The translations under genes were made by a program, and so were the position numbers. Below, piece by piece: positions 226 through 15,925 of a stretch of 16,105 bases of DNA. The stretch is from Abditibacteriaceae bacterium. GTDB taxonomy: Bacteria; Armatimonadota; Abditibacteriia; Abditibacteriales; Abditibacteriaceae. The notes beneath the pieces were generated by a model. The model saw only the letters and a program-made list of their open reading frames with translations. It was not told the DNA's origin and ran no database searches. Where the stretch lies: positions 1 to 16,105 of the forward strand of contig JANMKN010000056.1 in assembly GCA_031372065.1 (NCBI GenBank). The letters run 5' to 3'. Each line of letters begins with the position of its first letter. Position 1 is the first letter of the stretch.

Positions 226-3200
226 TTAGTGCGTCTGGATGTTACCGCTGTTGATGGTGCCGCCGTTGGTGTAACCGTTGCTGATGGTGATGTTGAAGGT
301 GTCGCGTCCGTTGCCGGGTTCGCCTACGTCTTTGACATTCACCACAAAGGTGACAGCCACGCCGCCCACAGTGCCCTTGCCGAAGATGCGGGCGTCAATG
401 CCATTGGCGTTGACAACTAAGGCCGTAATCTGCGTGCTGCTGAGGCTGAGGGCGCCATCGGTGTAAGTAACGCTGCCTTTGAGGGCGCCGTTCTTGTCCA
501 CCTGCGGGTTGATGTTGAAGCTGGCATTGCCGGAAGTCTTGCCCGCGATGGAACCACTACCCGTTACCTTGCCGCCCGAAGTGTTGGAAGGCAGGTTGAC
601 CGTGATGACAACCGTATCGGTGCTGTTGGCGCCGGAGGGGTCAGTCACCGTCAGCGTGATGGTGTTGACACCAACGGGCAGGTTGACCGTTGGGTTGGCG
701 CCGCTGGCTGTGACGCCTGCGCCTGTCCACGCGTAGGTCAGCGTATCGCCGTCAATGTCGCTCGAAGCGCTGCCGTTCAACGTCACCGGCGTTGTCACGC
801 CGGTAGCCGTCACCGTTTGGTCGGGGCCAGCGTTGGCAAGCGGCGCATCGTTGACGGCTTTGACCGTGATGGAAACCGTAGCTGTGTTGCTGTCCACCGT
901 GCCGTCCTTGGCTTTGAAGGTGAAGCTATCAGAGCCGTTATAGTTGAGGTTCGGCGTGTAGGTGCGGTTCGCGCCGCTGCCACTCAAGGTGCCATGCGCC
1001 GGGCCGCTGACGATGGAGTAAGTCAACGCGTCGCCATCAATGTCACTGGCGTGCAGTGTGATGGCTTTGGCGGTGTCTTCGTCCGTCGTTACGCTTTGGT
1101 CATCAGCGGTTGGTGCATCGTTGACGGCATTCACGGTGACTGTTACCGTTGCTGTGCCTTCGCCGCCGTTGCCATCGCTGATGGTGTAAGTGAAGCTGTC
1201 GCCACCGTTGTAGTTGGCATTCGGCGTGTAAGTTAGCGTGCCGTCAGCGTTGATAACAACGTTGCCATGCGCGCCATTGGTTTTGCTGGCAACGTGCAGC
1301 GTATCGCCATCAACGTCAGAGTCGTTGGCTTTGACGTTGATGGTGACTGGGTTATCTTCGTCTGTCGTCGCGCTGTCGTTGACTGCAAGCGGCGCATCGT
1401 TGATGGCGTTGACGGTGAGTGTGACGGTGACGGTTGCACTTTCCAAGAAGCCATCGGTGGCCTTGTAGGTGAAGCTGTCAGCGCCGTTGTAGTTGAGGTT
1501 TGCCTTGTAGCTAAAGCTGCCATTGTCGTTCAAAGTCAGCGTGCCGTGTGCGGGGCCAGTGACTTTGACGGCGTGCAGCGCTTCGCCATCGAGTTCTTCG
1601 TCGTTGAAAAGCACGCCGGGTGCCGGAACATTGAGCGTTTGGTCTTCGTTGGCGGCATAGCTGTCGCCTTGAGCAATCGGCGCATCACAAACCGCATGAA
1701 CAGTGATGGAAACCTCGGCTTCGTTGGAATCAAGCGTGCCATCGTTGGCGACGAAGCTGAAGCTATCGGAGCCGTCATTCATGGTGCCCAGAGGATAGTT
1801 GGCATCTGGGGTGTATTTAACGACGTTGCTGGTCGGCGTGTTATTCACAATCGCGCTGCCGTCGCTGTTGGTGAGGGTGCCGTGTTGGGGCAACTCGATG
1901 AGGGAATAGGTCAGCGTGTCGCCGTCAACGTCGCTGGCGCCCAAAGTGATAGCTTTGGCGACATCTTCGTTGGTGCTTACGCTCTGGTCAGCGGCAGTCG
2001 GTGCGTCGTTGACGGCATTGACCGTTACGGTCACAGTTGCTGTTCCTTCGCCACCGTTGTTATCGCTGATGGTGTAGGTAAAGCTGTCCGGGCCATTGTA
2101 GTTGGCGTTCGGCGTGTAGGTTACGGTGCCGTCAGCATTGATAACAACGCTGCCATACGCGCCGTTGGTTTTGCTGGCAACGTGCAAGGTGTCGCCATCC
2201 ACATCGGTGTCATTGGCTTTGACGTTGAGGGTGACTGCGTTGTCTTCGTTTGTCGTGGCGCTGTCGTTGACTGCTACAGGCGCGTCGTTGACAGAATTGA
2301 TGGTCACCGTAATGGTGGCTTCTGCCGAAAGATTACCATCGTTGGCGACGAAGGTGAATGTGTCGGTGCCGTTTTCCTCAGCGATTGGCGTGTAAGTGTA
2401 GGCGCCGGTACCCGCGTCGGTGATGACCGCGCTGCCCTTGGTGCCGTTGGTGACGATGCTGTAAGTCAGCGCATCGCCGTCAATATCGTTGCCGACTAAG
2501 GTGCCGCTCTTGGCGGTGTCTTCATCGGTGCTTAATGTGCCATCGTCGGCTGTTGGTGCGTCGTTGACGGCTTTGACCGTGATGGAAACCGTGGCGACAT
2601 TGCTGTCTACGATGCCGTCGTTGGCCTTGAAGGTGAAGCTGTCAGGGCCGTTATAGTTAGCATCCGGCGTGTAAGTCAGGTTCGGCGCGGTGCCGGAAAG
2701 CGTGCCCTGCGTCGGGGCGTCTACAACCGTATAGGTCAGCGGGTTGTTGTCGGCATCCGTCGCCGTCAGCGTGATGGCTTTGGCGACATCTTCATCGGTG
2801 GTTGCGCTTTTGTCATCGGCAACTGGAGCAGTGTTGACGAAGAGTGATTCATAAGCGCCGATGTCCACACTGCTGCCAATGATACGCGGATAGTTAGCGC
2901 CGCGTTGGTCATATGTCAGTCCAGCCGCCGCTGCATTGCTGCCTGCATTCACGGCTGTTCCATACGTTGTCAGCGCGATGGTTTGGGTTGGCCCGCCGTT
3001 GTTTTGCAAACCGGCGGGGTCGAGGCCAGCTTGCGCCGCCGTGCCACTGGTGATGTTGTTGCCGCCAGTGGTGACGCCCAGGTCATAGATGTTGGCGATG
3101 TAGGGCGATGTATTACCCGCAACGATGCTGTTGTTGAGCACCAGCGTGTTGAAGTTGAGGATGGCGCCGCCGTAGTTGGCAGTGTTGCCCGATACCGTAG

Positions 3201-5193
3201 TGTTGGCGAGGTCCAGCGTGCCGCCGTCGCCGTTGCGGATGGCGCCACCGCCGTAGGTGGTGCTATTACCCGACAGCGTGCTGTTGGTGACGTTGGTGAT
3301 GCCGTTGGCGTTGTAGACGGCGCCGCCGTCACCGACGGAGGTGTTGCCGCTGAGGGTGCTGTTCTGCACCACTAACGTGGCATTGTTGAAGATGCCGCCG
3401 CCAGCCACAGCGGAGTTACCGCTGAGGGTGCTGTTCTGCACCACTAACGTGCTATTCGATGGGTTGACGTAGATGGCGCCGCCGTTGCTGGTGCCGCCCA
3501 CAGCGGAGTTGCCGCTGAAGGTGCTGTTTTGCACCGTGAACGTTCCCTGATTGATTACGACAGCACCGCCGTTGCCGTTCTGGGAGAGGTTCCCACTGAA
3601 CGTGCTGTTGGTTATGGTCGTGGGCCCGTTCCCGTTGTTGGCGATGACGCCTCCGTCACGAGGAGCGGAGTTCTGGTTGAACGTGCTGCCGGTCACCGTC
3701 AACGTTCCGAAGAGGTTGTAAACAGCGCCGCCGTCGTTAATCAGGGTGGAGTTGTTGTTCACGGTGCTATTTACAATTTCCACGCTGGTCTGATAGAAGA
3801 AGATTGCGCCGGCGCCGTCGCCGGCGGAGTTGCCGCTGAGGGTGCTGTTGGTGATGGTCACAGGGCTATAGGCGTAGATGGCGCCGCCTTGATTAGCGGT
3901 GTTGCCTGACAGCGTGCTGTTCGTGATGGCGAGGGTGCCGAGGTTGCGGATGGCGCCGCCTTCGCCGCCCTCTGCCCTGCCGCCGCTGAGCGTCAGGTTG
4001 TTCAGCGACAGGTTGGCGCCGCTGTTCACGTTCAACAGTTGCACGTCGCCGGTGTTGTTGGTGCCGGAGTTATTGGCATCGCCGCTGATTGTCACGCCGC
4101 CCGCTTGGGTGTTGGTGATCGTGAGCGTGCCGTTGTTGACGATGTTGGGCAGTGTGGTCAAGAGCCGGATGGTGCCCGTCACGCTGAAGGTAACAGTGTC
4201 GTTGCTCGGCAGGCTGTTGGCGTAATTAACGGCCTCGCGTAAGCTGGTCAGGCCATCGTTCGCCGTCACATCTTGCGTGGTGTCAACAATCAGCGAAGGC
4301 ACTTCGTTGACCATGATGGAAACCGTAGCGATGTTGCTGTCAATGGTGCCGTCGTTGGCCTTGAAAGTGAAGCTGTCAGGGCCAGCATAGTTATTGGCTG
4401 GCGTATAGGTGCGATTGGCACCCGTGCCCGAAAGCGTGCCGTGGGTTGGAGCGCTGACAATCGTATAAGTCAGTGGGTTGTTGTCGGCGTCGCTGGCGCC
4501 CAATGTGATGTTAGCGGGCGTGCCTTCGTTGACCGCTACGCTCTGGCTGCTGGCAACTGGGGCGATGTTTGTGGGAACAGACGTAATTTTTACATCATCC
4601 ACGCCAACCTGAAAGAAAAACTGGTCGTCGGCCATCGCAAAACGCAAACGCACGGTCTGGCCAGCAAAGGCCGAAAGGTTGGCGCTCAGTGAAAATGGCG
4701 CTCTGGTCAACGGGTCACCTACGTTGGTTTTGAAGATAGTGGTTAAGATGTCTGCGGAAGCTACCGATAAGATATTGGCGGTTGGCTTCATAACATCAAT
4801 ACGATACTGCTGATTGCCACCTGACGGATTTAAATGAGCAGGTGTAAGAAACACGCTATAGCGATTGTAATAATATGTCTGAAATGACAGATTATGACTT
4901 TGGTTGGCCTCTAAAACGATGTCCTGATACAGAATAAGGGACGAAGGGCTATTTTGATCACACATAGCAGCGCGCGTTCCCTGGGGAGGTGCAGCAACAG
5001 ACTGCCCGGAAACAGGACTGTTTGTTCCTGTGTAATTATTCCAAGCCCCACCGCCGCTATTGACAACTCCCCAACCTGCCAGAGTTCCGTTTTCAAAGTT
5101 GCCATTGGTAATGGTAGCGGCGTAAGCGCTTTGGGCACTCACGAGGGATAGCGCAAGGGCCATCCACAGAAAAACACGTCTCATAATCATCAT
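226..5193 (-). CDS. Large secreted multi-domain surface protein / putative adhesin. Architecture: signal peptide, N-terminal beta-sandwich domain, Ig-like repeat, CSLREA-like motif, Pmp-like beta-helix, choice-of-anchor-Q-like segment, 7 more tandem-95/Big_9 repeats, PKD-like domain, post-COAP-1-like C-terminus
   Basis: 1655-aa ORF with a Sec signal ending in AYA and an AAAGGA RBS upstream. Motifs: DGLTSLREAV; repeated GGAI / FSGN / LSGN; LQNNGGPTQTIAL...DQRG...VDIGAYE; eight N(D)APxA...D(G)DxLTY...TYTP...GxDSFT repeats; APLANAGPDQ PKD-like domain; C-terminal GKVTGSG...DVGEPGNGRDTF...GNIQTH. Confidence 0.9.
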   Translation of the reverse strand: MMIMRRVFLWMALALSLVSAQSAYAATITNGNFENGTLAGWGVVNSGGGAWNNYTGTNSPVSGQSVAAPPQGTRAAMCDQNSPSSLILYQDIVLEANQSHNLSFQTYYYNRYSVFLTPAHLNPSGGNQQYRIDVMKPTANILSVASADILTTIFKTNVGDPLTRAPFSLSANLSAFAGQTVRLRFAMADDQFFFQVGVDDVKITSVPTNIAPVASSQSVAVNEGTPANITLGASDADNNPLTYTIVSAPTHGTLSGTGANRTYTPANNYAGPDSFTFKANDGTIDSNIATVSIMVNEVPSLIVDTTQDVTANDGLTSLREAVNYANSLPSNDTVTFSVTGTIRLLTTLPNIVNNGTLTITNTQAGGVTISGDANNSGTNNTGDVQLLNVNSGANLSLNNLTLSGGRAEGGEGGAIRNLGTLAITNSTLSGNTANQGGAIYAYSPVTITNSTLSGNSAGDGAGAIFFYQTSVEIVNSTVNNNSTLINDGGAVYNLFGTLTVTGSTFNQNSAPRDGGVIANNGNGPTTITNSTFSGNLSQNGNGGAVVINQGTFTVQNSTFSGNSAVGGTSNGGAIYVNPSNSTLVVQNSTLSGNSAVAGGGIFNNATLVVQNSTLSGNTSVGDGGAVYNANGITNVTNSTLSGNSTTYGGGAIRNGDGGTLDLANTTVSGNTANYGGAILNFNTLVLNNSIVAGNTSPYIANIYDLGVTTGGNNITSGTAAQAGLDPAGLQNNGGPTQTIALTTYGTAVNAGSNAAAAGLTYDQRGANYPRIIGSSVDIGAYESLFVNTAPVADDKSATTDEDVAKAITLTATDADNNPLTYTVVDAPTQGTLSGTAPNLTYTPDANYNGPDSFTFKANDGIVDSNVATVSITVKAVNDAPTADDGTLSTDEDTAKSGTLVGNDIDGDALTYSIVTNGTKGSAVITDAGTGAYTYTPIAEENGTDTFTFVANDGNLSAEATITVTINSVNDAPVAVNDSATTNEDNAVTLNVKANDTDVDGDTLHVASKTNGAYGSVVINADGTVTYTPNANYNGPDSFTYTISDNNGGEGTATVTVTVNAVNDAPTAADQSVSTNEDVAKAITLGASDVDGDTLTYSLIELPQHGTLTNSDGSAIVNNTPTSNVVKYTPDANYPLGTMNDGSDSFSFVANDGTLDSNEAEVSITVHAVCDAPIAQGDSYAANEDQTLNVPAPGVLFNDEELDGEALHAVKVTGPAHGTLTLNDNGSFSYKANLNYNGADSFTYKATDGFLESATVTVTLTVNAINDAPLAVNDSATTDEDNPVTINVKANDSDVDGDTLHVASKTNGAHGNVVINADGTLTYTPNANYNGGDSFTYTISDGNGGEGTATVTVTVNAVNDAPTADDQSVTTDEDTAKAITLHASDIDGDALTYSIVSGPAHGTLSGSGANRTYTPNLNYNGSDSFTFKAKDGTVDSNTATVSITVKAVNDAPLANAGPDQTVTATGVTTPVTLNGSASSDIDGDTLTYAWTGAGVTASGANPTVNLPVGVNTITLTVTDPSGANSTDTVVITVNLPSNTSGGKVTGSGSIAGKTSGNASFNINPQVDKNGALKGSVTYTDGALSLSSTQITALVVNANGIDARIFGKGTVGGVAVTFVVNVKDVGEPGNGRDTFNITISNGYTNGGTINSGNIQTH
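3347..3451. repeat. Intragenic tandem duplication in the beta-helix (33-bp identical unit, 72-bp offset)
   Basis: ccgctgagggtgctgttctgcaccactaacgtg occurs at 3347-3379 and at 3419-3451, encoding TLVVQNSTLSG twice. A related third copy lies near 3500-3535. Confidence 0.85.
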
Positions 5194-7533: not shown

Positions 7534-7636
7534 GCGGGAAAAGCTCTTTGCAAGAATGTTCCTAATTATCGCATAGCATAAACACTTCGACATAGATGTT
7601 TTGTCAGAAAAAGGCACTCACCACACGAGAAAACTT

Positions 7637-8617
7637 ATGACCAACTTCAAAAAAGCCTTGCCTCACCTCACAAAAGCCGCTTGCGCGCTGCTGTTTTCGC
7701 TGTTTTCGGCCACTTTTTCGACTGCTTTTGCCGACGAACTCACCATCGGGCCGGATTATGCCGATTCGCCGGAAATGACAGTGCGCGAGGGCGTGCCGCA
7801 AGGCACATTGCACGAATTCACTATGAATTCTACTGACAGCAAAATTTATCCGGGCATCGCCAAAAACCAACCCGGAACGGTGCCGTATCAGCGCAAAGTG
7901 GTGGTTTATGTGCCCCAACAATACGTTCCCGGCACCCCGGCGCCTTTTATTGTGGCGCAAGATGGCCTCGGTTATCGCAGCGCGCTGCCCAAAGTGCTGG
8001 ACAACCTCATCAACGAAAAGCGCGTGCCGGTGATGATCGCCATTATGATTAATTCCGGCGGCGGCGATTCGCTCGGCAGCGAGCGCGGCCTCGAATACGA
8101 CACGGTTTCGGACGTTTATGCCAACTTCATCGAAACAGAAGTGCTGCCCAAAATCAGCGCCGATTACAACATTACTTTCACCAAAGACCCCGAAGGCCGC
8201 GCCACGATGGGCGGCAGTTCGGGCGGCGCGGCGGCTTTTACGATGGCGTGGTTTCGCCCCGACCTTTACCATCGCGTGCTGACGTATTCCGGCACTTATG
8301 TCAATCAGCAATCGCCCGTCAATGCCGCTTCGCCGCATGGCGCGTGGGAATATCACGAGCATTTCATTCCGCAAAGCGAAAAGAAGCCGCTGCGCATTTG
8401 GCTGGAAGTCAGCGAAAACGATAACGGCTCCACGCGCGACGAGGCCTCACTGCACAACTGGGTCATGGCGAATCAGCGCATGGCGGCGGCGCTCAAAGCC
8501 AAAGACTACGATTATCGTTACGTTTTCGCGCAAAAAGCCGGTCACACCGATGGCCGCGTGACGCGCCAAACGCTCGCCTCGGCGCTCGAATGGCTGTGGC
8601 AGGGTTATCCTAAATAA
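7637..8617 (+). CDS. Secreted alpha/beta-hydrolase esterase (enterochelin esterase/Fes-like family)
   Basis: Signal peptide ending in AFA; VVYVPQQY...VAQDG; ERGLEYD; nucleophile elbow GGSSGG; C-terminal GH. ATG 7637 chosen as the start. Confidence 0.88.
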   Translation: MTNFKKALPHLTKAACALLFSLFSATFSTAFADELTIGPDYADSPEMTVREGVPQGTLHEFTMNSTDSKIYPGIAKNQPGTVPYQRKVVVYVPQQYVPGTPAPFIVAQDGLGYRSALPKVLDNLINEKRVPVMIAIMINSGGGDSLGSERGLEYDTVSDVYANFIETEVLPKISADYNITFTKDPEGRATMGGSSGGAAAFTMAWFRPDLYHRVLTYSGTYVNQQSPVNAASPHGAWEYHEHFIPQSEKKPLRIWLEVSENDNGSTRDEASLHNWVMANQRMAAALKAKDYDYRYVFAQKAGHTDGRVTRQTLASALEWLWQGYPK

Positions 8618-8642
8618 AAGGATGGTGCGCGCTTGGCTTTCG

Positions 8643-8756
8643 CGCCGGTTGAAACCGGCGTCTGGAGGGGCAAAGCCTGCCTTTGCAGGCTCATAATCAA
8701 GGTTTGGAGGCCACGAAGGTGGCCTTGGCTTTTGCAGGGGCCGGTTTCAACCGGTC
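8643..8756. repeat. REP/REPIN-like doublet: two 49-bp double-hairpin units in inverted orientation with a 16-bp spacer
   Basis: The reverse complement of 8643-8691 aligns without gaps to 8708-8756. Both contain gccggtttcaaccgg exactly and a 7-bp hairpin with an RAAG loop. Confidence 0.8.
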
Positions 8757-8796
8757 TTCAAACCCGCACCATCCATTAACTAAAGAAGGGGCAAAC

Positions 8797-9924
8797 ATGA
8801 AAAAGAATTTTTGGTCAACAAGGGCAATCGGCGCGCTGCTGCTGGCAAGTGGCGCACTCGTGCGGCCTGCGCAAGCCGCCGAGCCGCTTTATCAGGAAAC
8901 ATTTGAAGCCAATGACGGCGGTTGGACGCCGATGGGCGACACCGCCAAAGTGAAATGGGAACAGCAGGCGGACAACGTCAAGGAAGGCAAAGGCGCCTTG
9001 CGTTTCGATTACAGCATCGCGGCGGGCCAAATCAATTTGCTCGGCATTCCGGCGCCAGAGCGCCCTTTTGCCACGCTGCAAGCCATCACATTTTGGGTCA
9101 AGGCCAGCCACGACGCGCCGATGGCTTTTGTGCTGCAAGAACAAAACGGCGGGCGCTTCACGTCGCAGTTTTTCGCCCCGAAAAATAAATGGCAGCGCGT
9201 CGAACTCAAACCCGCCGATTTTGTGCTGCAAGAAGGCAACGACGACCCCAAAGACGCCAACGGCAAGCTGGATTTAGACAAAATCGAAGGCGCCGCACTG
9301 GTAGATTTCGGTCAAGTCTTGGCGCAATTCGCGGCGGGGCCAAATAACCCGCTGGCCCAACTTTTGAACGTGAAAACCGGGCCGCGCACTTTATATATAG
9401 ATGATGTCACCTTCAGCGCCACGCCGTTAGCAGGCGAACCGGCGCCCGATGCCACCTTGATTGATGGCTTCACGCGCCCGCAAGCCGCATGGTTTAGCAT
9501 CGGCGACATAGGACTGCAAAACATCAAAGACGAAAACCCTGAAAACAACGCGCTACAAGCCGACTACTGGCAGGAACCGAACCACCTTGTTGCCATCGTT
9601 AAGCCCGTTTCGCGCGGCGTTTTCGTCAACAAAAGCGGTCTTTCTCTCAATGCCGCCTCCAAACAGCGCGCCATTCTCATTGTGCAATTGGAAGAGCATA
9701 GCGGCGGCAAATACAACACAATGCTTGAAGTGCCCGGCAAAGCTGCGCCCACGCCCGTGACGCTTTTATTCAAAGATTTCAAGCCCGCCGACGACTCGAA
9801 AGACAACAATAATCGCCTTGATTTGGATCAAGTCAAGCAACTGCTCATCATTGACCTGACCGGCCTCATCGGACAAGCCAACACGCTTAATACGCTCTGG
9901 CTCAATCACATTCACGTTAAGTAG
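8797..9924 (+). CDS. Secreted protein with two tandem CBM11/CIA30-like (galactose-binding fold) domains
   Basis: GAAGGGG RBS before ATG 8797; signal peptide ending in AQA; EGKGALRFDY, ITFWVKA, WQRVELKPADF, LDLDKI and LYIDDV motifs. A second homologous domain ends in LDLDQVKQL...LWLNHI. Confidence 0.75.
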   Translation: MKKNFWSTRAIGALLLASGALVRPAQAAEPLYQETFEANDGGWTPMGDTAKVKWEQQADNVKEGKGALRFDYSIAAGQINLLGIPAPERPFATLQAITFWVKASHDAPMAFVLQEQNGGRFTSQFFAPKNKWQRVELKPADFVLQEGNDDPKDANGKLDLDKIEGAALVDFGQVLAQFAAGPNNPLAQLLNVKTGPRTLYIDDVTFSATPLAGEPAPDATLIDGFTRPQAAWFSIGDIGLQNIKDENPENNALQADYWQEPNHLVAIVKPVSRGVFVNKSGLSLNAASKQRAILIVQLEEHSGGKYNTMLEVPGKAAPTPVTLLFKDFKPADDSKDNNNRLDLDQVKQLLIIDLTGLIGQANTLNTLWLNHIHVK

Positions 9925-10007
9925 TGGTCGGTGGGCAGGGGGCGGGGGTCGGTGCAAGCACTTACTGCTCACTGCCTACTGCCTACTGCTCACCGACCAC
10001 CGCCCCC
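9924..10007. repeat. Inverted heptamer tandem arrays (STRR-like) between convergent genes
   Basis: actgctc-actgcct-actgcct-actgctc-accgacc-accgccc at 9964-10005 faces complementary G-rich heptamers at 9924-9954. Confidence 0.7.
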
Positions 10008-10009
10008 GT

Positions 10010-11245
10010 CTATGCCCATTTGCGATAAAAGCGCCATTCTTGATTGTGCGCGCCGGACAGCAAATCGGAATCGGAAACGCGATCCAGCGGCGTGAGAATC
10101 ACAGCGGGCGTATAAGCCGGGTGACAATTGCGAAAATGCGTGGTGCAGCGACGATCATCGTGTGTGCTGATCGTTGTCGTCGAAGTCGAAACCGTGGCGC
10201 TGCCCCAGCCATCCGACGGCAAGCGGCTAATGCCAAGCGGCGCATTTTCGCGGTCACGGCCAATTTCGCCGCACGTTGAAATGCCAGCATGACCTTCGGC
10301 GTCTGCCCACAATTCCAAAGCGCGCTTGTAACGCAGTTCACTGCCCAGACGCGGCGCCAAGCCATAATTTTGCATTTCCGGCAGCAGAAAATGATTGCTG
10401 CGCACTGCCATTTCATCGCCGTTAAACCACTGAAACGCCAGGCGTCGTGAGGTGCATTCGACAATCAAACCGCGCGTGGCATCGGCAAACAAAAATATCG
10501 AGCCGTAATTCACGCCGCCGCCGCCCAATAATTGGCGCGCAATTAAATCGTCAAGTGCGGGCACGATGTCATCCAGCGCTTCGCATTTTTCCGCCAAATA
10601 GCGCAAAACGTGGCAATCGTTGAGAACGCAGTCTTCATATTCGTCCGGCGGCACTGGCGAGCCGGTATTATTGGCGCCCGCCCAGTAATTTTCGGTGTGA
10701 ACGTGCGCGATGCCGATGTTGCCGACGTCGCCGCCCGCGACATAACGAAAACAATCGTCGCTTTGCTTGATGTAAAGGCATTGCACTTCGTCGCGCTCGT
10801 CGCGATTCTTGTGAAACAGCGTTTCGCCGGAAATCGTGCTGTCGCCCAGCGCGAAAAATGTGGTGCAATCGCCACCCATGAGCGGTTCATAGCCTTGCGC
10901 GTCGAAAGCGCTGACGATTTCGCCCGTCGCCGCATTATATAAAGGCGGCGGCAGGTATTCGTTGCCCCAGAAATCGGAGGGCAAGCAGTTGAGCGCCAAA
11001 ATTTGCGCAGCAGGAATTTCAAGCGTTTTCGCCACAGCGCGCGTTTCATCCAACCAATGCGGCGCGATTGCTTCCAGTGCGCTGCCGAATTTTTCAGCGC
11101 GCTCGCTCAACGCTTCGACCACGCTCATTTTTTCGGCGCGCCGTTTCGTGCGCGCCACGCGCTCTTTTAACGCGTCGCGCTGATATTCTCCGAGCAGCGC
11201 GCCGATTTCCGCCGCGCTGCCAATTAAAAAAACAGGTTCACCCAT
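10010..11245 (-). CDS. C45 family Ntn-hydrolase (autoproteolytic acyltransferase/peptidase)
   Basis: Pro-segment PHWLDETRAVA...ILALN; candidate nucleophile Cys127 in GGDCTTF; LFHKNRD; VRSNHF. Confidence 0.8.
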   Translation of the reverse strand: MGEPVFLIGSAAEIGALLGEYQRDALKERVARTKRRAEKMSVVEALSERAEKFGSALEAIAPHWLDETRAVAKTLEIPAAQILALNCLPSDFWGNEYLPPPLYNAATGEIVSAFDAQGYEPLMGGDCTTFFALGDSTISGETLFHKNRDERDEVQCLYIKQSDDCFRYVAGGDVGNIGIAHVHTENYWAGANNTGSPVPPDEYEDCVLNDCHVLRYLAEKCEALDDIVPALDDLIARQLLGGGGVNYGSIFLFADATRGLIVECTSRRLAFQWFNGDEMAVRSNHFLLPEMQNYGLAPRLGSELRYKRALELWADAEGHAGISTCGEIGRDRENAPLGISRLPSDGWGSATVSTSTTTISTHDDRRCTTHFRNCHPAYTPAVILTPLDRVSDSDLLSGAHNQEWRFYRKWA

Positions 11246-11246
11246 G
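11177..11246. repeat. 70-bp perfect direct repeat, copy 1 (the 5' end of the intact C45 gene)
   Basis: gcgctgatattctccgag...aaaacaggttcacccatg is identical to 12395-12464. Confidence 0.97.
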
Positions 11247-11253
11247 CGTTTAA

Positions 11254-12291
11254 TTATCTCAATTTATAGCGCCGAAAAGCGAGACCAGAGCCGCCGATTA
11301 TAACGAGGAAAATCAGAGTGGCAACGAAATAAACTTTTACTTTAAACGCATTGATTTCCGCATCTTGCAAAACTTTAATAGCTTCAAAACTATGCTTGCC
11401 CTCCGCCCATGTGAGCGCCGATTCGTCAGAAGCATTTCGATAATTCAAATCGGCTCCATGAGTGAGCAATACCCTAATGGATTCCGGCCTGTTTGCACCT
11501 GCCGCCAACATCAGAGGAGTCAGGCCATCATCGCCTTTATGTTCAATATCGGAGCCAGCATCCAAGAGCAGTTGCGTAATGGCCGGATCGCCGCCGATGG
11601 CCGCGCCACCTAAAGCCGTGTCGCCATGCGCGTCTGTCAGATTTATGTCGGCACCTTTTGATAATAGAAATCGAACAATATCGTCGTGCTTGGCTACAGC
11701 CGCGAAATGGAGGGCCGATAGTCCGCCCAATTTTCCTTGTCTGCCCTGCAATTCGATCATTTTGATATTGACGTTGCAGCCTTTATCCAAGAGCATTTGC
11801 ACAATCGAAAGATAACCACGATTGGCGGCAGCACACAAAACGGGAATGCCGCTTTTCGAGGCAGCAGACGGACTGGCACCTTGCGTTAAGAATAGCGATG
11901 CCGAGGCTGCATCTCCTTTGCGAACAGCATCAACCAAGTTCAAATCCACTAACGAAGTTGAAGGAGTGCAAATGGTGGCTGGCGGCACAGCAACTGACGC
12001 GATTAGAGGTTTGTGCTGCGCAACAGACGGCGCCGTAAAATGGCGAAAGATGCCGATTCCTAAAAGCAGCACGCAAAACAGAGCGGTGCCTATCAAAATG
12101 GTTTTGCGCTTCTCGGCCTCGAAAGGCGCTTTTTCCATTTGGCGCGACGCGGCATGGACAGGAGGAGAGCTTGGATTGGCGGCAGATTCACCTTGCTGAA
12201 CAGGCAACGTGGCGCGGCAAACCGCGCAGTTTTGGACATGGGGTGAATTCAACTCGCCACATTGTATGCACCGCACAGGTGTTAAAGACAT
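11254..12291 (-). CDS. Membrane-anchored ankyrin-repeat protein with N-terminal CxxC-CxxC zinc ribbon
   Basis: CIQC...CAVC; TM helix; about six ankyrin repeats (e.g. SALHFAA...LLSKGADIN, TPLMLAA...LLTHGADLN); C-terminal TM followed by RRYKLR. Lower GC than the flanking genes by eye. Confidence 0.9.
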   Translation of the reverse strand: MSLTPVRCIQCGELNSPHVQNCAVCRATLPVQQGESAANPSSPPVHAASRQMEKAPFEAEKRKTILIGTALFCVLLLGIGIFRHFTAPSVAQHKPLIASVAVPPATICTPSTSLVDLNLVDAVRKGDAASASLFLTQGASPSAASKSGIPVLCAAANRGYLSIVQMLLDKGCNVNIKMIELQGRQGKLGGLSALHFAAVAKHDDIVRFLLSKGADINLTDAHGDTALGGAAIGGDPAITQLLLDAGSDIEHKGDDGLTPLMLAAGANRPESIRVLLTHGADLNYRNASDESALTWAEGKHSFEAIKVLQDAEINAFKVKVYFVATLIFLVIIGGSGLAFRRYKLR

Positions 12292-12298
12292 CGTGCCA

Positions 12299-12304
12299 AT
12301 TATA
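12299..12304 (-). promoter_or_regulatory. Consensus -10 element (TATAAT) 7 nt before the ankyrin ATG; probable leaderless promoter
   Basis: The minus strand reads ggggTATAATtggcacgATG, with no Shine-Dalgarno sequence in between. Confidence 0.6.
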
Positions 12305-12394
12305 CCCCAAAAGCAATGTCATAAAACAGCGCAGCATTCTTATATGTAAGCCGTTCAAACGAGACATTCTACGGGAAGTTATATAAATAGCGCG

Positions 12395-12464
12395 GCGCTG
12401 ATATTCTCCGAGCAGCGCGCCGATTTCCGCCGCGCTGCCAATTAAAAAAACAGGTTCACCCATG
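12395..12464 (-). pseudogene. 70-bp direct repeat, copy 2: orphan 5' stub (23 codons) of the C45 gene
   Basis: Encodes MGEPVFLIGSAAEIGALLGEYQR, identical to the N-terminus of 10010..11245, then runs into unrelated AT-rich sequence. Confidence 0.9.
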
Positions 12465-12527
12465 TTTCAGAGTAAACCTAAATTCGAGATGATCGCCACA
12501 CAATTTTTGGAGATTCAAAAGGTTTGT

Positions 12528-12551
12528 GTAGCGACACACGGCGTGTGTCCT
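12528..12551 (+). repeat. GTAG-type REP-like hairpin
   Basis: GTAG-c-GACACAC-ggc-GTGTGTC: a GTAG tetranucleotide followed by a perfect 7-bp stem, intergenic and just past a stop codon. Confidence 0.55.
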
Positions 12552-12554
12552 TAG

Positions 12555-13070
12555 CTATTTCTGTGGTTGCGCGGCCAAATTGCCCAGCGTATTGAGCAAA
12601 TGGCCTTCGGCGCCAATGATAAAACTGGCTTCATCGCCGATTAAGCCGGTAATCGTGAGAAACGATTCCACTTTCGGCTGCTTGATGAAATCCACTTGCG
12701 TCTTGAGTTTGGCGATGGCTTTCGTTCGGCTGTCTTTGGCATCTTCCACGGAGCCGCGCCAATCGTTGAGCAGCGTAGCGAATTGGGTATTACCCGCTTG
12801 TTTATCAACCAAGGCCTGCGCCACTTTGCGATGCGTTTCGCGCACAGGCTCCAGCACGTTTTCTTCGGCTAAAGCGCATTGCACCACGGCGTCTTGCAGC
12901 GTTTTATCGGTCAACTCGCACCAGTTCATGGTGTCGCGCAGCGTTTTTTCGAGGCGTTGCAGCGCTTCTTGGCGCCTTTGTTCGGGGGAAGGCGCGGCGG
13001 TTTTTTGGGCCTGACAAAACGAAGCGCAACAAAGCAGCGCGGCGATGGTAAACAGTAAAGGGTGTTTCAT
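12555..13070 (-). CDS. Secreted alpha-helical hypothetical protein
   Basis: Start reassigned to ATG 13070 (MKHPLLFTIAALLCCASFCQA, a signal peptide). The longer ORF overlaps the divergent acyltransferase. Codon usage is host-like. Confidence 0.72.
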   Translation of the reverse strand: MKHPLLFTIAALLCCASFCQAQKTAAPSPEQRRQEALQRLEKTLRDTMNWCELTDKTLQDAVVQCALAEENVLEPVRETHRKVAQALVDKQAGNTQFATLLNDWRGSVEDAKDSRTKAIAKLKTQVDFIKQPKVESFLTITGLIGDEASFIIGAEGHLLNTLGNLAAQPQK

Positions 13071-13130
13071 GCCAAAATTAGAAACACAAGGCAGCCCCAT
13101 AAGGCGCGCCTTTGAACTGCCACTTTTTCT

Positions 13131-14330
13131 ATGAAAGCCACACAATTTCGCCCCGCGATTGACAGTCCGCGCACGCGAGCCTTTGCCAATTTGATGTCGC
13201 GTCCGGCGCTGCGTTGGGCGCGCGGTGTGCAGCGCGTGGAAATCGCAGGCGGCGATTTGAAGCGCTTGCAAAGTTTGCGCGACGAGCGCGTGGTTTTGAC
13301 GCCGAATCATCCGACTAACACCGATCCGGCGCTGATTTGGGAACTTTCGCGCCGCGCCGCCATGCCGTTTCATTATTTATGTTGCCACGAAGCCTTCGCT
13401 AAATGGGGCGGCTTGTGGGGCGCTTTAATTCAACGCATGGGCGCCTATTCGGTAGTGCGCGGCACGGCGGACAGGGCTTCGTTTGCCTTTACCAAGGAAG
13501 TTTTGTCCAAACCCGGCGCGAAGTTGGTTTTGTTTCCCGAAGGCGAAGTTTACAGCCAGAACGATTCGCTTTTGCCTTTTCAAACCGGCGCCGTGCAATT
13601 GGCCCTTTGGGGTCGTGACGCGGCGCGCAAAAGCGAGCCAAACGCGCAAATTTATCTGTTGCCGTGCGCGATTCGCTATCGCTTTTTGCGCGATGTGACG
13701 CCGGTTTTGCATGGCAAATTGGCCGATTTGGAAGAGCATCTCGCAATGCCAGACGGCCCCGGCGAATTGTATCCGCGAATGCGCCGCGTGGCACTGCGGG
13801 TTTTTGAAGAAGTCGAGCGCGAATACGGTTTGCATCCCGCGCCGGGCGAAGATGTTTCGCCGCGCTTGCAAGCCGCCAAAGAAGCCGCTTTAGCCCGCGC
13901 CGCCACGCTTTTTGGCCTCGAAATGCCGCGCGGCACCTTGCCCGAACGAATGCGCGCTTTGCTTTTCGAAGTCGAAAGCGCCATGCACGATTTGGAAAGC
14001 GAAAATGCCGCGCCCGATGCCGAAAACGTCGAAGCCTTCCGAGAAAGAGCTAACAACACGCGCCGCGCTTGGCGCGATTTACAGCGCCTCGCCAATTGGA
14101 TCGCGGTTTACGACGGCTACGCCAAAAAATCGCCGACGCCCGAACACATCGCCGAAGTGATTTATCGGCTGGAAATCGAAGTTTTCGGACACGCCACACA
14201 CGCTGGAACGCGCATCGCACGGGTGCGCGTCGGCCACGCCATTCCCTTGCCAGAAAAGGTTTCGCGCAAAGATTTGCCTGCGCTCACCTTGCAACTCGAA
14301 CAAGCCGTCGCAGCGCTCTTGCGCATTTAA
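13131..14330 (+). CDS. PlsC-family (1-acyl-sn-glycerol-3-phosphate/lysophospholipid) acyltransferase with long helical C-terminal extension
   Basis: Block I NHPTNTD (HX4D), block II GAYSVVRG, block III FPEGE, block IV LLPCAIRY. Confidence 0.88.
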   Translation: MKATQFRPAIDSPRTRAFANLMSRPALRWARGVQRVEIAGGDLKRLQSLRDERVVLTPNHPTNTDPALIWELSRRAAMPFHYLCCHEAFAKWGGLWGALIQRMGAYSVVRGTADRASFAFTKEVLSKPGAKLVLFPEGEVYSQNDSLLPFQTGAVQLALWGRDAARKSEPNAQIYLLPCAIRYRFLRDVTPVLHGKLADLEEHLAMPDGPGELYPRMRRVALRVFEEVEREYGLHPAPGEDVSPRLQAAKEAALARAATLFGLEMPRGTLPERMRALLFEVESAMHDLESENAAPDAENVEAFRERANNTRRAWRDLQRLANWIAVYDGYAKKSPTPEHIAEVIYRLEIEVFGHATHAGTRIARVRVGHAIPLPEKVSRKDLPALTLQLEQAVAALLRI

Positions 14331-14363
14331 AACAGGACAGCAGCACTCCTTTATTCCTAAACC

Positions 14364-14822
14364 ATGAACGAAACACAAATGATAGATGTCGGCGCTAAAG
14401 ATGACACGCAGCGCGAAGCGGTGGCGACAGGTGAAATTAAAATGTTGCCCGCGACTGTGCAAATGGTGGCAAGTGCCACGCTGCCCAAAGGCAACGCGCT
14501 CGAAACGGCGCGAGTGGCGGCCATTATGGTGGCTAAACGCACGCCGGATATAATTCCGCTCTGTCATCCGCTGCTGATTTCCCACGCTTCGTGCGAATTT
14601 GAATGCGACGAAGCGAACGGAATTATCCGCGCCACAACGCGTGTGCGTTGCAACGGCAAAACCGGCGTGGAAATGGAAGCGTTGACAGCAGTCAGCGCCG
14701 CACTCTTAACGATTTATGACATGACCAAAGGTGTGGACGACACGCTGGAAATTACGCGCATCGTTTTGCTCGAAAAACGCGGCGGCAAAAGCGGGGATAG
14801 GGTTAAAAAAAGCCGCGCCTGA
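14364..14822 (+). CDS. moaC: Cyclic pyranopterin monophosphate synthase MoaC
   Basis: MIDVGAK...REAVATG; KGNALETARVAAIMVAKRTPDIIPLCHP; GKTGVEMEALT; YDMTK; KRGGKSG. Confidence 0.96.
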   Translation: MNETQMIDVGAKDDTQREAVATGEIKMLPATVQMVASATLPKGNALETARVAAIMVAKRTPDIIPLCHPLLISHASCEFECDEANGIIRATTRVRCNGKTGVEMEALTAVSAALLTIYDMTKGVDDTLEITRIVLLEKRGGKSGDRVKKSRA

Positions 14823-14842
14823 AAATTCAGGCGCGGCTTTTT
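14805..14842. terminator. Bidirectional intrinsic terminator between moaC and the YceI-FKBP gene
   Basis: Perfect inverted repeat aaaaagccgcgcctgaa/ttcaggcgcggcttttt between convergent genes, overlapping the moaC stop. Confidence 0.92.
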
Positions 14843-14854
14843 GTTTATTAAATC

Positions 14855-15925
14855 TCAATTCACTTTCAGCAATTCAACATCGAAAACCAAAGTGGAATTG
14901 GGCGGAATGGCACCGGGGAAACCGCGCGAACCGTAGCCCAATTCGGGTGGAATGGTCAGTTTGCGCTTGCCGCCGACTTTCATGCCGGCCACGCCTTCAT
15001 CCCAGCCTTTGATAACCATACCAGCGCCCAGTTGAAACTGGAAAGGTTTCTTGCCCACCGATGAGTCGAACTGCGTGCCATCGGTTAATTTTCCCGTGTA
15101 ATGAACGGTCACATTGTCGCCCGCTTTGGCTTCGGCGCCGTCGCCAACTTTTACGTCTTCAATTTCTAAACCATTTGCCATTTTTCTTTTGCCTCCGTTA
15201 TTTTCTGCCACTTCTGGGTCTGCCTTGACTTGTGCGCCTTCGGGCATCGAAGAACGCGTGCTGGCGAAAACATTCACCGTCACGGTTTCTTCGTTGGCGA
15301 CTTTCAATTTCGCGGGCGCCGGAACCATGATGCCGAATTCGTCCAACTTGATAGGAAACGTCGCTTTGATATACAGCAAATCGCCCGGCAAACGTCCCTT
15401 CGTGTTTTCATCGGCGGGCAAGGCAGTCACTTCCACATCGGCCATGACCGGCTTGGTGACACCATGCAATTCCATGTCGCCTTCGGCTTTGAACTTTCGC
15501 ATTTTGCCCGGCACCAGCACTTGCACATCGCGCGTGATGCCGACCAATTTGCGCAACGTGAAAATCGCTTTGGGATTTTTCGCCACGTTCAGCCATTTGT
15601 CGCCGCGCATAATGTCGTCGCGCGCTTTGATGCCGGTTTCCAGCGACGCTAAATCTAATACAAAACGCGCCTTAGGGCCGTTGATCGCGTTTTGCGGGTC
15701 AACTTTTACTTCGGCGGTCACGTTGCCGGTGCGAGTCAGCATGGTTTCCAGCGGCGCGTCCGACAAAATCATCACTAAATTGCGTTGCGCTTCATCATTC
15801 GCATAATAGACGCGATAGGCGCCTTGCGCGGCCATCGCCACGAAGGTAAGGCCGGTTAATCCGACACAAGTGGCCCCGCCTTGAAGTATTCGCTTTTGAA
15901 GCGTTCGCTTTTGTCCTTGTTTCAT
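14855..15925 (-). CDS. Secreted YceI-like lipid-binding domain fused to an FKBP-type peptidyl-prolyl cis-trans isomerase
   Basis: Signal-like N-terminus. YceI motifs [12 protein letters not shown]...[12 protein letters not shown]...[12 protein letters not shown]...LDEFGI. Complete FKBP domain VHYTGKL-DG-FDSS...VIKGWDEG...[15 protein letters not shown]...[14 protein letters not shown]. Confidence 0.92.

Follow-up and report, generated by a model that had tools for sequence, protein, structure and literature searches.

The locus examined here raises the question of how a single ankyrin gene came to lie between two copies of the start of another gene. The window, i.e., the whole stretch of 16,105 nucleotides that was analysed, is one complete contig (C305) of a 6.14-Mb, 410-contig assembly of an Abditibacteriaceae-related bacterium, whose genome is 94% complete. 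Comparison of the sequence with itself bore out the initial annotation in that a 70-bp direct repeat (11177–11246 and 12395–12464) is perfect, with its copies 1218 bp apart; it is not one base longer on either side, and only these two copies occur in the 6.14 Mb. On the minus strand the repeat comprises 1 nt ahead of an ATG and 23 codons, as had been described, and the distinction drawn between an intact and a stub copy was also correct. The copy at 11246 opens an intact gene of 411 aa, and the copy at 12464 opens a stub, from which 68 unrelated codons read on to form a 91-aa open reading frame (12188–12463) that overlaps the start of the ankyrin gene. Read along the minus strand, the order is a gene at 12555–13049, the stub, 103 bp of AT-rich DNA, the ankyrin gene (11254–12291), 8 bp, and the intact gene (10010–11245). 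The stretch at 12465–12554 is presumed to be the original upstream region of the target gene, although a count of the polarity of the two flanks at this locus gave a tie (11 vs 11).

The intact target gene is conserved in the family and is present in three same-genus genomes at 78–79% identity. Its earlier C45 label stood in part: the protein has a weak similarity to Pfam AAT, i.e., a C45-like hydrolase family (E = 1.3e-4), but its 22.1 bits fall below the cut-off of 23.2, and no PDB sequence matched it. A second C45 match in genome G002 was considered as a stub and rejected, being a frameshifted piece. On the other side of the locus, the gene at 12555–13049 (minus strand) encodes a 164-aa protein without a Pfam family, which matches about 11 paralogues in the genome and appears host-like. 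Most other direct repeats of the window arise from a 1655-aa surface protein (226–5193, minus strand) with Big_9/cadherin-like and PMP-like repeats, and intergenic repeats of palindromic form, at 8620–8760 and around 14810–14850, have numerous matches in the genomes of the same genus.

The insert between the two copies (11247–12394; 1148 bp) has a GC content of 49.6%, compared with 56% in both flanking genes, as had been noted earlier, and 53.2% genome-wide. Its only cargo is the ankyrin gene, on the minus strand, whose 345-aa product has two CxxC motifs, a hydrophobic segment and ankyrin repeats. The GC3 of this gene is 0.49, which ranks it among the lowest 4% when 3473 long genes are compared. 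None of the 12 window proteins belongs to an integrase or transposase family in Pfam, and comparison of the insert ends revealed no terminal inverted repeats, again in agreement with the initial annotation. The insert has no DNA in common with any of three same-genus genomes; the closest kin of the ankyrin protein, in same-genus genome G001, are only 39% and 34% identical, and a search of a protein database returned generic ankyrin matches only.

Both ends of the ankyrin gene have features suggestive of promoters. Upstream, the AT-rich DNA (12292–12394; 40.8% GC) carries TATAAT 7 nt before the ATG and is possibly the gene's own promoter; it has no match to a −35 element and was missed by the promoter scan of the genome. 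The idea of general leaderless transcription was dropped, since TAnnnT at 6–7 nt showed only a slight enrichment (2–3% vs about 1%). At the other end, the two full-length ankyrin kin stop three residues past the point where a 34-codon extension (11254–11358) begins here. This tail has no relative in 30 related genomes or in its own genome, so the candidate explanation that it is a piece of another gene was rejected; judged from the sequence, it is likely to be read-through over a promoter region. Within the DNA of the tail, at 11324–11297, lies a predicted sigma-70-type promoter, TTGCCA-16-TATAAT (11 of 12 positions), which does not figure in the initial annotation. It is directed at the intact gene, about 50 nt before its ATG. 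Sites scoring at least 11/12 number 82 in the genome, with 0.0007 expected per 110 nt, and are found 5′ of 23 of 4068 genes versus none of 4068 gene-internal stretches. The predicted promoter is thus likely to be a replacement promoter for the intact gene. The insert would then be a natural chromosomal piece (ankyrin gene, promoter and gene start) that substitutes for the displaced promoter, and the repeat copy at 11177–11246 would have come in with it, in whole or in part.

We consider it very improbable that the layout is an assembly artefact in which two strain variants, or an empty chromosome and a separate circle, were merged at the common gene start. The assembly is fragmented, and a repeat of 70 bp is beyond the resolution of 31-letter words. 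Contigs from four runs of one study were aligned to 9200–14600, and none of the pieces listed covers the whole stretch. In run X1, which is possibly the source run, the pieces (10398–11206, 11217–12424, 12395–12464, and 12435 onward) meet at the repeat, all four junctions showing up as 30-letter overlaps, i.e., one below the 31-letter bridging rule. One 1208-bp contig of this run nevertheless joins the repeat at both ends of the insert, which speaks against the artefact, as does a contig of X3 (11177–11353) that spans a repeat-insert junction; a contig of X2 (12418–12755) extends from the stub to the right flank. Depth in X1 is more favourable to the artefact, since the repeat (7.4) is not doubled relative to the flanks (6.5–6.8) and the insert is deeper (10.2). 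Amplification or circles were entertained to account for the latter and dropped, because X3 did not repeat the excess (3.9 vs 2.4–4.3). X2, in which the insert is uncovered, was likewise dropped as a candidate empty site: only about 85% of that run was read, none of its contigs joins across the insert, and its word share of 0.75 would be reached more easily with the insert in place. The contigs listed for the four runs include neither a flank-to-flank junction, as from an empty site, nor a circle junction, and no RNA run carrying the stretch was listed. Contigs of this kind cannot separate the integrated form from an empty site plus a circle, and support for the integrated layout comes from the genome assembly. 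Further arguments against an artefact come from the sister loci described below, most of which hold mismatches that collapse would not create, and three of which have empty sites in relatives.

The initial annotation had suggested a genome scan for similar cases. We compared the genome with itself, using an analysis-specific gene caller and keeping unique pairs 250–15000 bp apart. This yielded 145 repeat pairs, or 104 once pairs inside one gene were removed. Pairs combining a gene end with an intergenic copy were almost all direct (32, with 25 at 3′ ends and 7 at 5′ ends, vs 1 inverted), and 29 of the 32, among them the present locus, have the cargo enclosed by the intact gene end and a stub that lies outward. 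The set of 29 is uncurated and includes some doubtful members (C137, C60, C58 and C286). Its median repeat is 67 bp and its median insert 965 bp, the identity between copies ranges from 74 to 100%, and the insert's GC content is under that of the host gene in 24 of 29. Fewer than 50 open codons precede most of the 3′ stubs, which marks these as orphans. The target gene differs at every bracket, and the host genes are ordinary ones, e.g., acetate kinase, UvrC, SelB, a pseudouridine synthase and an aldehyde dehydrogenase. A perfect 108-bp repeat that opens with ATG (G000:C109:3178 and 7478; 4300 bp apart, near a contig end) fell outside the filters.

The cargo of these brackets is mixed. Cargo proteins were sampled at 18 of the 29 loci and at C17. 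Of these 27 proteins from the 19 loci, 11 matched a Pfam family: Fic, DUF433, DUF5615, Imm5, nucleotidyltransferase, NB-ARC/TPR, S8 peptidase, FG-GAP, WD40-like, NosD-like and one IS200-like transposase; none of the 27 was an integrase by Pfam. Integrative elements restore their targets, and the present locus might be the relic of a site-specific element of this type that brought a replacement gene start and promoter and has since lost its integrase. Although the genome encodes 11 tyrosine recombinases, none of these (the only type searched genome-wide) lies in or next to the 29 brackets, the nearest on the same contig being about 10 kb away, and neither this search nor Pfam analysis of the window placed an integrase at the ends of the present insert. 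Such an origin would also require a traceless loss of the integrase at each of about 29 different targets, and the site has not been used again at the loci of 12 relatives. We therefore regard it as improbable. Elsewhere, arrays of repeated intergenic sites, which we take to resemble integron attC sites, were observed at G000:C351:800–3860, C2:28300–30900 and C109:160–2000, with similar repeats in G003:C280; a tyrosine recombinase (C351:3261–3860) adjoins one of them. A short CRISPR-like array (G000:C183:27485–27950; 29-bp repeats, 61-bp spacing) is on a contig with two tyrosine recombinases.

One of the two routes offered in the initial annotation was mobilisation in trans of a minimal single-gene cassette; a dedicated cassette of this kind would make the locus a special slot. 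The 29 inserts share no sequence at their ends, and their inverted-repeat score (5.2) equals what is expected by chance (null 5.1), with the exception of palindromes within C118 and C286. No motif was found at the inner junctions; an apparent GC richness there was rejected (69 of 116 bases, p = 0.19). Target duplications well below 70 bp, which the initial annotation ascribed to insertion sequences, are not a general rule: IS1549 and IS1634 produce variable direct repeats of 8–514 bp (PMC2266710). A transposase of this type, or an unknown enzyme, could thus in principle make repeats of this length, and the stub-rich genome G003 does encode an IS1634 transposase. Those repeats, however, flank a transposase gene, whereas here no IS1634 match was found in the 94% complete genome, nor were inverted ends. 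Moreover, a transposase would copy its target exactly, which is at odds with the allele-like differences described below. With every target different, and the gene start duplicated at none of 12 relatives' loci (one of them with just 63 bp upstream), a cassette moved in trans is slightly less probable than a relic element. In C118, the IS200-like Y1 transposase (G000:C118:9801–10463) lies inside a stub bracket with 24-bp palindromic sequences at both ends, possibly a REP-associated transposase unit.

The density of outward stubs varies among relatives, as might be expected if it depended on an enzyme acting in trans. We counted 14 in 2.68 Mb of the present genome and 7, all at 3′ ends, in 0.386 Mb of G003 (overlapping pieces, on contigs chosen from earlier matches), but none in 0.4 Mb each of G002, G005 and G012, where frameshifts in G002 may conceal cases, and a single doubtful one in 0.4 Mb of G011. 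Because of this unevenness, a genus-wide or family-wide rate is unsupported.

If the stubs were exact copies of the host gene end, differences between the two copies would have arisen by decay. Across the set, mismatches fall at codon positions 1, 2 and 3 in the ratio 55/36/121 (121 of 212 at the third position), and the differing codons are synonymous in 98 cases and non-synonymous in 85. This pattern rejects uniform decay (p = 1e-12), as well as an assumed model with a neutral stub and a selected gene (p = 5e-4). Stub-side changes, when polarised with relatives, are distributed 15/4/20 (p = 0.015 for position 3), a pattern that also allows for some decay. Where site comparisons were made, relatives agree with the stub at 74 sites and with the gene copy at 111, although the sites are not independent. 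In 16 of 17 ungapped 3′ cases the stop codon of the stub is within three codons of that of the gene copy, even where similarity ends earlier, and for 16 of 24 cases the outer edge of the repeat is no more than 5 nt away from the stop. Taken as a whole, the set shows differences between copies like those between two alleles.

These results bear on the strongest competing explanation, in which foreign DNA entered at a staggered break or by a template switch, 70 bp of the recipient was copied exactly, and events that spared the gene were selected. The perfect repeat at the present locus agrees with this explanation, as do the many first-position changes on the stub side. PMC2853133 also suggests double-strand breakage as the way in which such duplications form, and notes that the sparing of the gene may be selected. 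What local duplication leaves unexplained is the near-consensus promoter correctly placed at the insert end, the position of the outer edges (1 nt from the ATG here, and close to the stop codon in 16 of 24 cases), and the third-position excess. We consider it unlikely, if less so than the other alternatives. The synonymous bias would also be given by replacement pieces under selection, as in a relic element.

Empty sites were sought by comparing eight loci with three same-genus genomes. They are clear at C90, C407 and C122 (3 of 8) and approximate at C210; the other four tested loci had no shared neighbours for comparison. C407 is a gene-start case like the present locus, and there relatives agree with the stub at the four outer sites, in keeping with retention of the native promoter side by the stub. 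A clean single-crossover pattern is seen at C407 and, roughly, at C329 only: C122 and C90 are mixed, and C161 has the opposite polarity, its cargo-side flank matching two relatives better than its stub-side flank does (27 vs 8 and 22 vs 5 of 60). The Fic gene that is the cargo of C90 has a counterpart, 77% identical, in G003, where it follows a host gene other than that of C90 and is accompanied by a 65-bp stub of its own. For the present locus, neither an empty site nor a donor was found among three same-genus and eight same-family loci, in a scan of metagenomes (seven loci, one of them close) or in a scan of genomes (six loci), and when the insert served as a DNA query against the genus, no donor was returned. 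No empty site was recovered because the neighbours differ in all relatives compared.

The differing neighbours are themselves informative. When the window from 7600 to 15900 was compared with G002, neighbouring genes were 76–90% identical in DNA yet at separate places, with their order nearly all lost. Gene order is shuffled among the same-genus genomes in general, and homology on two flanks is often absent. Because the genes of the window are scattered in these genomes, a donor would often share one flank only.

Taken together, we put at roughly two in three the probability that the ankyrin gene derives from the DNA of a close relative, where it was situated 5′ of the same target gene, and was captured by homologous recombination at nothing but the common gene start, the old start being left behind as a stub. 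This mechanism retains the parts of the initial annotation that described a recombinase-free insertion rebuilding its target gene and that offered homology-assisted recombination as a route. A donor piece carrying the ankyrin gene, the promoter and the start of the target gene would enter the cell. Its end would be trimmed to codon 23 and then joined either to its own other end or, illegitimately, to the chromosome at codon 23. A single crossover in the common stretch would then generate the observed order, i.e., old promoter, stub, ankyrin gene, new promoter and intact gene. A recircularised single crossover and an illegitimate joint inside the anchor gene give the same product and are not separable here. 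Capture via one homologous flank would make a dedicated element unnecessary, and the outer edge of the repeat would lie at the ATG because the homology of relatives ends with the coding sequence, rather than through a cut by an enzyme. ComEC, DprA and MutS are present in the genome; the first two are also in most control genomes, and being so widespread are no proof of competence. Ku, for end-joining, was found in none of nine genomes.

At the present locus the copies are 100% identical, so that they carry no allele signal; capture of a relative's DNA would require that the donor was very close or that the copies were homogenised later, and the same perfect repeat would result from exact local duplication. 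The lack of mismatches can date the event only on the premise that both copies were identical at the outset, a premise that the other cases suggest was often wrong; the event may nonetheless be recent. It may also be reversible: judging by geometry only, recombination between the copies could release a circle of 1218 bp.

The footprint itself is already known as an "insertion with long target duplication" (Furuta, Abe, Kobayashi, 2010; PMC2853133). That survey concerned restriction-modification cargo in mostly competent species, with repeats that often cover a start or stop codon such that the gene is spared. The present locus belongs to the same class, having a repeat of more than 30 bp that is unique in the genome (70 bp, two copies) and an insert of less than 20 kb without a mobility gene. 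The ankyrin gene places it outside the restriction-modification subset, and it differs further from the surveyed cases in that the cargo genome-wide consists of mixed small genes, that about 29 cases occur in one genome, and that an empty site was not found for it.

Integration of trimmed and recircularised DNA by one crossover has precedent in E. coli, where it gave duplications of 109–950 bp (PMC3240628); this involved a laboratory plasmid in conjugation, and the repeats here are shorter (median 67 bp). Homology-facilitated illegitimate recombination (HFIR) has been called upon to explain the orphan 3′ ends of T6SS arrays in Vibrio cholerae (PMC5361080). It combines one homologous anchor with one illegitimate joint and can leave displaced gene ends, but in general DNA of the recipient is lost (PMC3240628). 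At the present locus such DNA is duplicated instead, and an HFIR joint would need to land back within the anchor gene; the empty sites of the sister loci show that the flanks were kept. A literature search for the allele argument, which covered only a minority of subscription journals, returned a paper on cagA and does not imply that the argument is absent from print. What the present analysis adds is the density reached within a single genome, the allele-based evidence, and a predicted promoter hand-over.

Taken alone, the present locus is a clean but unremarkable instance of a footprint already described; what gives it weight is the set to which it belongs. With codon-position and outgroup data for about 29 cases in a single genome, the set informs the question of how long target duplications arise, and the data favour the replacement of the recipient's gene end by that of a donor. 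We suggest tentatively, as something that may well prove too broad, that in part of the genus capture by one flank is a main source of new genes and of altered gene order, with dozens of stubs per genome preserving the alleles of donor and recipient next to each other. If this is true, "long target duplications" would be swapped gene ends rather than copies, and loci like the present one would be switchable slots that also swap the promoter of the target gene. The insert appears to supply its target gene with a new promoter, so that events of this kind could change how genes are expressed.
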